Positions 7,046 through 9,564 of a stretch of DNA of 64,000 bases are shown piece by piece. The stretch's first letter is position 1, and each line of letters begins with the position of its first letter. Position numbers and translations under genes: made by a program. This stretch comes from Escherichia phage MN04: sequence record MT129654.1, one strand, 5' to 3'. Below the pieces are notes generated by a model. The model did not search any database. It worked only from the letters and a program-made list of their open reading frames with translations, and was not told where the DNA came from.

Positions 7046-7318
7046 GTGTTTATGTTAGTATTAAAATTAGCTTTTTATGACCCAGAAACCAAGACAACAA
7101 CTACTAAACGTTGTTCTATTTCATATGAATGCCAATTTGGCGAAGTTGAGACCGACGGCGAGCCCTTTATGGCAATTGCCGATAGCACATTCGCTAAACC
7201 AAAAATAATTCCACTAGTTAACGCTGCGGCTTATCTGGTTGCTCCTGAAGAAATGACTTATCATACAATTCAGCACATGGCTAAAGACGATAATGCTCCT
7301 GCTGGATTTGTAATTTAA
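7046..7318 (+). CDS. hypothetical protein (90 aa)
   Basis: ORF with SD gaggtg upstream. Confidence 0.45.
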   Translation: MFMLVLKLAFYDPETKTTTTKRCSISYECQFGEVETDGEPFMAIADSTFAKPKIIPLVNAAAYLVAPEEMTYHTIQHMAKDDNAPAGFVI

Positions 7319-7323
7319 ATTAA

Positions 7324-7397
7324 GGCCCTGTAGCTGGACGGTCAAGCGAGCGACTCATAATCGCTGGATGGTGGTTCGATTCCACCCAGGGCCACCA
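7324..7397 (+). tRNA. tRNA with anticodon CAU (Met, or Ile2 if lysidine-modified), CCA encoded
   Basis: Acceptor stem GGCCCTG/CAGGGCC, anticodon stem AGCGA/TCGCT with loop CTCATAA, T-arm GGTGG-TTCGATT-CCACC. Confidence 0.8.
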
Positions 7398-7401
7398 ATT
7401 T

Positions 7402-7476
7402 GGATGTGTAGCTCAGTGGTAGAGCAGTTGACTGTTAATCAATTGGTCCATGGTTCGAATCCATGCATGTCCGCCA
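7402..7476 (+). tRNA. tRNA-Asn (anticodon GTT), CCA encoded
   Basis: D-arm GCTCAGTGGTAGAGC, anticodon loop CTGTTAA, T-arm CATGG-TTCGAAT-CCATG, acceptor with two G-U pairs. Confidence 0.75.
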
Positions 7477-7480
7477 AATA

Positions 7481-7556
7481 CGAGGCATAGCTCAGAAGGA
7501 AGAGCAACGGTCTTCTAAACCGTAGGTCGTAGGTTCGATCCCTACTGTCTCGACCA
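7481..7556 (+). tRNA. tRNA-Arg (anticodon TCT), CCA encoded
   Basis: D-arm GCTCAGAAGGAAGAGC, anticodon stem ACGGT/ACCGT with loop CTTCTAA, T-arm GTAGG-TTCGATC-CCTAC; T4 also carries tRNA-Arg(UCU). Confidence 0.75.
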
Positions 7557-7559
7557 AAC

Positions 7560-7860
7560 AAGAAACCGGGTCGCTACCGGTAAGCCGTCGGACTGATGTT
7601 CCCTGAGTAAGGACTGACATTAACAAATCTTTACGATCTGTTAACGTCCCCTTACATCACAGCAGAAACGGCGCACCGAATTATCGATTCGAGGAAATAT
7701 CTTTGCCGTAAGCCGAGTAGCGTTTTTGACGGAACGTTCGGATATGGTCGAGATATGGCCTTTTAAAAATATTGAGTAGCGTCAACTACTTAATAACCGG
7801 GTTCGAATCCTGGCGTTTCGTACAAACACTTGCCTAGCAGGTGGAACCCCGACAAGGTTA
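7560..7860 (+). ncRNA. structured non-coding region with a tRNA-like 3' T-arm; possible small stable RNA(s) analogous in position to T4 rnaC/rnaD
   Basis: No ORF; T-loop-like CCGGG-TTCGAAT-CCTGG at 7797-7813 and a long imperfect hairpin at about 7609-7660; sits between the tRNAs and a terminator. Confidence 0.3.
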
Positions 7861-7871
7861 CCCTAGGTTAA

Positions 7872-7900
7872 AGGCCCTTCCGAAAGGTTGGGCCTTTTTT
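7872..7900 (+). terminator. rho-independent terminator
   Basis: Hairpin aggccc-ttccgaaaggtt-gggcct followed by a T-run. Confidence 0.7.
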
Positions 7901-7901
7901 G

Positions 7902-7909
7902 TATAAATA
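7902..7909 (+). promoter_or_regulatory. late promoter TATAAATA
   Basis: Exact TATAAATA right after the terminator, 27 nt upstream of ATG 7936. Confidence 0.55.
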
Positions 7910-7935
7910 TACAGTAAACTAACTTAGGAAATAAT

Positions 7936-8490
7936 ATGAAACTTTTAAAATATTTGAGTTGGATTCTGTTGGTCCCACTAGATTTTATCTCTATGGTTCT
8001 AGCCGTTATCCTTGCGCCTTTTGTGGTTCCTTTCCACAATAAAAAGACTGGTAAATTGCCGTACGGTTTTGATTGGATGATGACATACGATAATCCAATT
8101 GACGGTGACAAAGGTCATATTAAACGTTGGGCTAAAATCAGGAAAATGCCTGGCGGTGTTTATCTCCAGAGGGTAGCTTGGCTATGGCGAAATAAAGCTT
8201 ATAACTTTGCTTACCATAAACTCGGTCGCGATTGTAGCTCAGAATTCCATTATCGTGGTAATCCTGATGTGGAATCAGGTTCTCCTGATAAAGCTCACCA
8301 TGGTTGGTTGTGGATGTGGAATGATGACGCCTGGGGTGTATTTGCTTCAGTTCCTTATCTTAAGGTCGGTGGAATCACATTTTACCTTCGCGTGTACTGT
8401 GGCTGGAAGCTTAAGAGTCTTTTGTCTCGTAAAATCCCTAAAGCTATGTTAGCCTTCCACGTGAACCCGTTCCGGTTCTACAAGAACTGA
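7936..8490 (+). CDS. membrane protein (184 aa, N-terminal transmembrane helix)
   Basis: ORF flanked on both sides by identical terminator plus late-promoter cassettes. Confidence 0.55.
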   Translation: MKLLKYLSWILLVPLDFISMVLAVILAPFVVPFHNKKTGKLPYGFDWMMTYDNPIDGDKGHIKRWAKIRKMPGGVYLQRVAWLWRNKAYNFAYHKLGRDCSSEFHYRGNPDVESGSPDKAHHGWLWMWNDDAWGVFASVPYLKVGGITFYLRVYCGWKLKSLLSRKIPKAMLAFHVNPFRFYKN

Positions 8491-9300: not shown

Positions 9301-9564
9301 ATGGATAATTATGGTGAATTGTTTAATTTCTTTATGAAATGCGTTCCTGAAGAATTTGGTGCTACTGTTAACGATATTAAGGTTATCGGTCCTGAACACC
9401 CAGTGTATGAAACCTATGCAGTAATGGGTAACGAAGATGGACAGTGGTATACAATTAAAGTTGTGATTAATATGTTCTCAGCTGAAGGCTACGCCAAAAC
9501 GTCTACCAAAGTTTACCATGATAACGATTTTGATGCAGAAGATTATTTCAATAATATGAAATAA
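9301..9564 (+). CDS. hypothetical protein (87 aa)
   Basis: ATG 9301 with SD ggagag. Confidence 0.5.
   Translation: MDNYGELFNFFMKCVPEEFGATVNDIKVIGPEHPVYETYAVMGNEDGQWYTIKVVINMFSAEGYAKTSTKVYHDNDFDAEDYFNNMK

Follow-up and report, generated by a model that had tools for sequence, protein, structure and literature searches.

The rnaD/rnaC locus of Escherichia phage MN04 and a predicted tRNA-like architecture for rnaC

Results

The segment from 7558 to 7900 of Escherichia phage MN04 (sequence record MT129654.1), which lies in the 64,000-nucleotide (nt) stretch of DNA that was analysed here as a whole and is called the window, is, as judged by alignment and folding, the 3' end of the transfer RNA (tRNA) transcription unit of the phage, and encodes orthologues of the rnaD (species 2) and rnaC (species 1) RNAs of phage T4, a trailer hairpin and an intrinsic terminator, all on the plus strand. 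rnaC and rnaD of T4 have been known since the 1970s. An earlier note on this DNA, made from its letters alone, had drawn the region slightly more narrowly (7560-7860), as a structured stretch without a plausible open reading frame (ORF) between the tRNAs and a terminator, for which it proposed a counterpart of the T4 RNAs, a degenerate tRNA or a tRNA-like processing signal. The lack of a plausible ORF is borne out, in that the longest ORF confined to 7557-7935 has 44 codons for amino acids on either strand, and the next substantial plus-strand ORF starts at 7936. The proposed T4 counterpart is likewise borne out by a base-for-base alignment with T4, RB10 and Kha5h, in which the two RNA genes have the same order and position.

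When 7557-7910 was used as a blastn query against 50,697 phage records, 801 records matched, 679 of them over at least 80% of the region; nearly all are T4-like enterobacterial phages, and the best match is Escherichia phage KIT01 (99.2%). Where curators have annotated the matching DNA, i.e. in RB10, RB55, Kha5h and T4, it is as rnaD (species II RNA) and rnaC (species 1 RNA). The locus is collinear with those of T4, RB10 and Kha5h, tRNA-Arg being followed after 1-2 nt by rnaD, a 5-6 nt spacer, rnaC, the trailer hairpin and the terminator, and it has the same genes, order, position, spacing, trailer and terminator as the T4 rnaC/rnaD locus. The upstream tRNAs differ, with eight in T4, ten in RB10 and three in the window. 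On the basis of these alignments, 7558-7677 (120 nt, aligned to the annotated rnaD of T4 and RB10) is rnaD and 7684-7822 (139 nt, aligned to the annotated T4 rnaC) is rnaC of this phage, an identity that is already known in kind.

The window rnaC is identical to that of T4 (NC_000866, 70908-71046) at 137 of 139 positions over its full length. For rnaD the agreement with T4 is 102 of 119 positions, and comparison with T4, RB10 and relatives reveals nearly invariant 5' and 3' thirds and a variable middle hairpin; the RNA begins 1-2 nt past the CCA of tRNA-Arg(UCU), as in the annotated T4 and RB10 genes. That adjoining tRNA shares only 47 of its approximately 76 positions (~60%) with its T4 counterpart. 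The difference between rnaC and tRNA-Arg in this respect argues that the RNA itself is under selection, and, on the sequence comparison, no single tRNA of the cluster is as well conserved as rnaC.

No Rfam family exists for rnaC or rnaD. Searching the whole window against Rfam at gathering scores returned no family for the 7558-7900 region, and at E<=10 nothing credible was found within 7300-7950, the matches to isrK, BTnc231 and permuted transfer-messenger RNA (tmRNA) being weak chance matches. An ordinary tRNA that had been wrongly folded, which the earlier note had allowed for, was also sought; the Rfam tRNA model (gathering threshold 29 bits) has no match in 7557-7950 at E<=10, and ARAGORN reports no tRNA or tmRNA in the region, only the three tRNAs upstream. 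A 36-nt rnaC signature pattern occurs once in the window, compared with 0.00 expected occurrences, and a covariance model (R1) finds a single rnaC copy as its sole match in the 64-kilobase window, with 152 bits, a score that is not independent because the model includes this sequence.

Structural analyses of rnaC were carried out on 31 distinct sequences from phage records, IMG/VR contigs and metagenome contigs, covering Tequatrovirus, Dhakavirus, Gaprivervirus, Tegunavirus, Karamvirus, Kanagawavirus, Winklervirus, Moonvirus and Marfavirus, as well as the unclassified phage Ursula and uncultured contigs. Scanning IMG/VR with a pattern in which loop B (see below) was constrained gave 19 true rnaC loci, and a pattern with both loops free added the Marfavirus type together with two false positives, both ordinary tRNAs (L041 and L042); a metagenome scan gave 12 loci. 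The minimum free energy (MFE) fold of rnaC has z = -4.34, with 0 of 200 shuffles as good, and agrees with the RNAalifold consensus, which has 38 pairs and shows compensatory changes at 22 of them. In the proposed structure, which comprises 54 pairs, 90.1% of cells are paired over the 31 sequences, compared with 79.6% in column shuffles (0/500 reach the observed value) and 37-47% when the partners are slid, and 30 of the 54 pairs have changed on both sides. With this covariation as support, rnaC is best described as a tRNA-derived, cloverleaf-like four-way junction with an oversized D-arm.

The acceptor-like stem is formed by CGAUUCG (7685-7691) and CGUUUCG (7814-7820), with two U-U mismatches. 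At its third pair, 21 sequences have G-C and the other 10 have A-U, and in three phiR1-RT-type sequences both mismatches are replaced, by U-A and C-G, to give a fully standard stem of 7 base pairs (bp). A 3-bp D-like stem, AGG/CCU (7692-7694/7759-7761), closes a 70-nt arm (7692-7761), the long part of which (7697-7756) has ~26 bp and bears loop A at its apex; it is because this arm takes the place of the D-arm that the earlier note did not arrive at a canonical cloverleaf. The long arm occurs in two mutually unalignable versions, one of the T4 type and one of the EnC15/Marfa/Ursula type; each is 70-73 nt in length, has 22-27 bp and carries loop A at its apex. It is followed by an A/U-rich linker, UUUAAAAA (7762-7769), of 8 nt (7-10 nt in nearly all relatives), and by hairpin B (7770-7795), the equivalent of the anticodon arm, with a 10-bp stem and a 6-nt loop; nine of its ten pairs have changed on both sides, and its length of 26 nt never varies.

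One nucleotide separates hairpin B from the T-arm, CCGGG-UUCGAAU-CCUGG (7797-7813), which directly abuts the 3' strand of the acceptor stem, as in tRNA. This is the T-loop-like element that the earlier note had picked out, and its parts lie where they had been placed, i.e. CCGGG at 7797-7801, TTCGAAT at 7802-7808, CCTGG at 7809-7813 and the acceptor-like strand CGTTTCG at 7814-7820. The second pair of the T-stem is C-G in 28 sequences and U-A in three, and the third is U-A in 18, G-C in 10, A-U in one, G-U in one and unpaired in one; T4 rnaC has a G-C pair in the T-arm where the window has its one G-U pair. Beyond the acceptor strand rnaC ends with the tail UA (to 7822) and the DNA continues CAAAC, such that the 3' end reads ...CGUUUCG-UACAAAC and no CCA is encoded; in all of the relatives examined, the acceptor stem is followed by GU(A/U/C)CA(A/G). 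Among relatives the RNA has a total length of 139-142 nt and its junction nucleotides are invariant. The shape of rnaC is conserved where its sequence is replaced.

The direct repeat GAGTAGCGT is present twice within rnaC, at 7715-7723 in the long arm and at 7774-7782, from the 5' strand of hairpin B into loop B. An alternative fold in which the 3' strand of hairpin B takes the other copy of the repeated GAGUAG (7715-7720 and 7774-7779) as its partner, as hinted at by the MFE fold of the EnC15 sequence, was considered and rejected, because phiR1-RT and PG7 have changed both strands of hairpin B with the other copy unchanged.

These results bear on the proposal of a degenerate tRNA or tRNA-like processing signal, which holds in part as a description, given the cloverleaf-like junction, acceptor stem and T-arm of rnaC. 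A functionless, drifting sequence, either a tRNA pseudogene in decay or a tRNA that has taken up a large insertion, would explain why the acceptor stem and T-arm are so clearly of the tRNA type, and some pipelines do call a tRNA here (in PG7, G9062 and G29); however, the conservation pattern, with rnaC almost unchanged from T4 next to a tRNA-Arg at ~60%, contradicts it, as do the 30 compensatory pairs and invariant junction nucleotides maintained across more than ten genera and the lack of any tRNA covariance-model match at E<=10. We regard such decay as highly improbable.

Loop A, which caps the long arm, reads UUGACG (7726-7731), and loop B, the 6-nt loop of hairpin B, reads CGUCAA (7780-7785); the two are exact Watson-Crick complements in 31/31 sequences. 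UUGACG/CGUCAA is the pair in most sequences, with UUGAUG/CAUCAA in three of the Tegunavirus type and UUGGCG/CGCCAA in five of the Marfavirus type; there are thus compensatory double changes at two loop positions, in 5 and 3 sequences of separate clades. The 12 loci of the metagenome scan added no new loop type. Since the loops are complementary and co-vary, we infer that they pair to form a 6-bp kissing-loop helix. Loop B was also considered as a real anticodon and rejected as such: the triplet, GUC (Asp), AUC or GCC (Gly), varies by clade, and it is the pairing that is conserved. By a rough helix count, the 10 bp of hairpin B would stack with 6 bp from the kiss and another 6 bp from the apical stem to give 22 bp, which is about equal to the remainder of the long arm (~20-24 bp). 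A closed intramolecular body of two helices is plausible because these lengths about match, and the linker, at 8 nt, would leave the helices room for a side-by-side arrangement.

Many GenBank records place coding sequences (CDSs) for hypothetical proteins over rnaD and rnaC, e.g. RB69ORF150c, and at the DNA level the two loop hexamers form an inverted repeat, TTGACG...CGTCAA; small protein-coding ORFs, or a DNA site for a dimeric protein, might therefore be envisaged. Set against coding, the confined ORFs do not exceed 44 amino acids, lie on both strands and overlap structured RNA, the 1-3-nt insertions and deletions among relatives would shift any frame, and the substitutions track base pairing and not codon positions. 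Set against a DNA site, each hexamer coincides precisely with the loop of a stem that co-varies, and the RNAs themselves have been detected in T4 (PMC9697503). The probability of either explanation is, in our view, close to negligible.

For rnaD, structure was counted on 18 distinct sequences. Its fold has z = -2.95, with 3 of 200 shuffles as good, and 93.6% of cells are paired, compared with 32-56% for slid controls, with nine pairs changed on both sides. Hairpin 1, ACCGG-GUCGCUA-CCGGU (7565-7581), has a 5-bp stem and an invariant 7-nt loop, and its closing pair is A-U in 10 sequences, G-C in six and G-U in two. A closing stem, GCCGU/ACGGC (7584-7588/7668-7672), encloses a long irregular stem-loop (7593-7665), the apical part of which is the long imperfect hairpin of the earlier note, found here at ~7605-7658; the apical hairpin has three unrelated sequence versions among relatives. 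RNAalifold proposed instead a 7-bp closing stem reaching the 3' end. This was rejected in favour of GYCGU/ACGGC, because a U-to-C change in the window turns a U-G pair of the latter into C-G and breaks the RNAalifold stem. In the preferred fold the 3' end is a free single-stranded tail, GCACC. The base after ...CACC is A in T4 and G in the window, where an ACCA end is hence not encoded, and among relatives it is A, G or T, such that an ACCA end is not conserved. The idea of rnaD as a second tRNA mimic was rejected, as it has no T-arm and hairpin 1 resembles one only loosely.

Upstream of rnaD, ARAGORN and Rfam agree on tRNA-Met(CAU) at 7324-7397, tRNA-Asn(GUU) at 7402-7476 and tRNA-Arg(UCU) at 7481-7556, the last ending in an encoded CCA; their Rfam tRNA scores are 62.6-72.6 bits. 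This Met, Asn and Arg set differs from the eight tRNAs of T4, as the earlier note had said. Window and KIT01 tRNA sets also differ despite the 99% identity of rnaD/rnaC, with Met-Asn-Arg in the former and Met-Arg annotated in the latter (L003, 1278-1434), and the KIT01 sequence just 5' of rnaD differs from that of the window; given such different tRNA sets beside nearly identical rnaD/rnaC, the tRNA cluster looks mosaic. The spacer GAATTA (7678-7683; AAATTA in T4) separates rnaD from rnaC.

Between the 3' end of rnaC and the terminator, folding predicts a trailer hairpin (7832-7868), which the alignment shows to be nearly invariant among T4, RB10, Kha5h and KIT01 and which may be a processing site; for T4, an RNase III-type cut 3' of species 1 has been described. 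The region does end at a terminator, as had been proposed: in the predicted intrinsic terminator (7870-7900), a GC-rich hairpin (7870-7897), the loop of which is GAAA, leads into a T6 run (7895-7900). Its stem covaries relative to T4, with GGCCC/GGGCC against GCCCC/GGGGC, and the Kha5h record annotates a terminator at the equivalent site. The imperfect stem explains why a simple terminator scan did not pick it up. The sole terminator-like site from that scan is the minus strand of rnaD hairpin 1 (7565-7581), where the complement of AAGAAAC supplies a T-rich stretch behind the hairpin; this site is unlikely to be a real terminator.

Among relatives, which belong to more than ten genera, rnaC lies within or at the edge of tRNA clusters of very different tRNA content. 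rnaD is upstream of rnaC in loci of the T4 type (T4, RB10, Kha5h, KIT01, VR7 and related contigs), and is missing at Karamvirus, Kanagawavirus, Tegunavirus and Marfavirus-type loci. In Marfavirus-type Klebsiella phages a conserved element of ~55 nt (AAGGGGUGG...CCCACCCCAAGG) with a 7-bp closing stem is located between a tRNA 3' end and rnaC (L037, ~9368-9430, minus strand; also L038, L040, L044 and L053), and may be another small RNA at the rnaD position. The rnaC pattern has 0 matches in 185,579 bacterial and archaeal GTDB species genomes, and blastn of rnaD and rnaC gave nothing in complete E. coli genomes; at the sensitivity of these pattern and blastn searches, there is no host or prophage copy of either RNA.

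The distribution is informative on whether the region is a processing or punctuation element only, which directs RNase P and RNase E cuts and protects the 3' end of the operon, with the RNAs as by-products that have no function in trans. In T4-type phages rnaC does close the tRNA unit on its 3' side, shortly ahead of the terminator, and the acceptor/T-arm is an RNase P recognition module (PMC11143913). However, in Karamvirus PG7, Entb_43 and EnC15, and also in Kc304 and NM4.3, rnaC is in mid-array with tRNAs downstream and not a 3' cap, and VR7 (L011, 1-1321) keeps rnaD and rnaC with no tRNA found by ARAGORN within 600 nt on either side. In addition, ~100 nt with no bearing on RNase P have kept their shape, including a co-varying tertiary contact, and the RNAs accumulate as discrete late species in T4 (PMC9697503). 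A role in processing and nothing else is therefore very unlikely. In VR7 only a remnant resembling a tRNA 3' end (...AAATACCA) precedes rnaD.

Discussion

The proposed rnaC structure has much in common with canonical tRNA (RF00005), including a 7-bp acceptor stem that adjoins a 5-bp T-stem with a UUCGAAU loop, a four-way junction and a location inside a tRNA cluster. It differs in that the D-arm is replaced by the 70-nt arm, the linker has 8 nt instead of the 1 nt of tRNA, and the stem equivalent to that of the anticodon arm has 10 bp with a 6-nt loop paired with loop A, where tRNA has a 7-nt loop; moreover, rnaC has no variable loop and no encoded CCA, and has the two acceptor U-U mismatches.

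Reuse of an acceptor/T-arm-like module on a body that is not a tRNA is known from tmRNA and from YrlA (RF02553), where it lets tRNA enzymes act. Compared with tmRNA, rnaC has neither a G3-U70 pair nor CCA, and no tag reading frame; ARAGORN finds no tmRNA, and the matches to the permuted-tmRNA model, at 10-12 bits (gathering score 47), fall on genuine tRNAs. The sole YrlA match, with 28.6 bits (gathering score 69), spans tRNA-Met/tRNA-Asn at 7362-7432, outside the rnaD/rnaC feature.

In T4 infection the products of rnaC and rnaD, RNAC and RNAD, are made, and their function has been reported as unknown (PMC9697503; PMC3014915). A transcriptome study of 2022 confirmed both by Northern blot and classed them as late, whereas the eight T4 tRNAs were classed as early (PMC9697503). 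The T4 tRNA cluster and the species I and II RNAs are parts of one primary transcript of ~1.75 kilobases, which ends after species I (PMC2330249), and the model substrates of RNase P include an acceptor-stem/T-stem-loop RNA (PMC11143913). Our literature search, which did not reach the sequence papers of the 1970s, found no functional study of rnaC or rnaD. Work from the 1970s-80s described the processing of T4 species 1 and 2 by RNase P and RNase E.

By analogy with these substrates, we consider it likely that the acceptor/T-arm of rnaC is a handle for excision by RNase P and 3' trimming that gives the RNA tRNA-like stability, with rnaC itself inert in translation. Host RNase P and the 3'-trimming enzymes would recognise the module, and rnaC would be excised like a tRNA from the polycistronic transcript and share the stability of tRNAs. 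It would be unable to join translation because no CCA is encoded and the loop equivalent to that of the anticodon is occupied. Taken jointly, the identity, architecture and processing proposed here for the rnaD/rnaC locus are in our estimation highly probable, an estimate that does not extend to the guess at function that follows.

With respect to function, one tentative picture is that rnaC, by virtue of its tRNA shape, would serve late in infection as a ligand or decoy for some factor of the host or phage that recognises tRNAs; the target might, for example, be a defence nuclease directed at tRNAs or an enzyme of processing or modification. In this picture the paired loops would hold the RNA in a rigid form that resists nucleases. 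Several points weigh against this picture and the reading of rnaC as a tRNA mimic on which it builds. The decoy role is a guess, and one that we hold to be possible at best. The RNase P cut at the rnaC 5' end is proposed from the earlier T4 work and by analogy. T4 mutants with deletions in the tRNA region grow on laboratory strains, and any function of rnaC or rnaD would for this reason have to be conditional. Strict tRNA mimicry is not universal, given that most members have the acceptor U-U mismatches and that the conserved T-stem carries the non-canonical loops UGCAUGC in CIP9 (Kanagawavirus; L005, 1208-1348) and UGCAUUC in Kc304 (Winklervirus; L012, 606-746), such that a standard T-loop is not required in all rnaC members. 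Only two independent compensatory events underlie the loop-loop helix, and one of the search patterns fixed loop B, the Marfavirus type having come from the pattern with both loops free. Finally, as far as the sequences go, the covariation fits pairing within one molecule and pairing between molecules alike.

The last point leads to the main rival of the tRNA-mimic reading, self-assembly through the loops, in which loops A and B would pair between molecules (A-B', B-A') to give dimers or larger closed assemblies and the tRNA-like module would serve excision and stability only. Loops A and B are mutually complementary and neither is self-complementary, which fits head-to-tail pairing as well as intramolecular pairing, and the strictly conserved lengths of the arm and hairpin are those that a defined assembly geometry would need. 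There are also precedents, as the ROOL and GOLLD phage RNAs, often found near tRNA islands, form cages (PMC12286853), and RNAs of <200 nt, including the manA motif near cyanophage genes, assemble via intermolecular kissing loops (bioRxiv 10.64898/2026.07.01.735769). Like rnaC, the ROOL/GOLLD and manA-type RNAs are structured, phage-encoded and often located beside tRNA islands (PMC12286853), and loop-loop contacts are central to their architecture (PMC12286853; bioRxiv 10.64898/2026.07.01.735769). By contrast, rnaC is much smaller (139 nt) and has a tRNA-like module, its multimerisation is putative, and neither ROOL nor GOLLD has an Rfam match in the region at gathering scores or at E<=10. Given that closure within one molecule is plausible by the rough helix-length count, and that covariation does not discriminate between the two modes of pairing, we judge self-assembly to be rather unlikely.

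A broader form of the tRNA-mimic reading would make rnaC a new structural class of tRNA mimic and, with rnaD, a conditional host-range factor. The class would be defined by a tRNA handle, i.e. the acceptor stem and T-arm, on a rigid body, which the 6-bp loop-loop helix would close or multimerise; the host-range role might, for example, be that of a decoy or sponge for a tRNA-targeting nuclease or host factor, or of a small self-assembling RNA particle. In an evolution experiment reported in 2025, a T4-like phage was adapted to the semi-permissive host ECOR34, and every line came to share one and the same single-nucleotide polymorphism within rnaD (PMC12685909); this selected change hints at host-specific roles, and rnaD may thus have a related, host-specific role of its own. 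We consider the combination of new class and host-range factor to be unlikely as it stands. If true, it would assign a function to RNAs that have been known for ~50 years and are conserved across enterobacterial T4-like phages.

The locus itself is an ordinary one, the known rnaD/rnaC pair, which is unannotated or mis-annotated in many genome records. What the present analysis adds is the covariation-backed architecture of rnaC, with its co-varying 6-bp loop-loop helix and length-conserved arm, and with it an old open question on rnaC becomes approachable by compensatory-mutation and host-range experiments. A covariance model for rnaC and rnaD, for which Rfam has no family, would also clean up annotation. 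Besides the hypothetical-protein CDSs mentioned above, parts of the region are labelled as a 95-nt tRNA-Met in PG7, as tRNA-OTHER in G9062 and as tRNA-Lys in G29, and these CDS and tRNA labels look like annotation artefacts; in KIT01, the closest relative, nothing is annotated over rnaD/rnaC.

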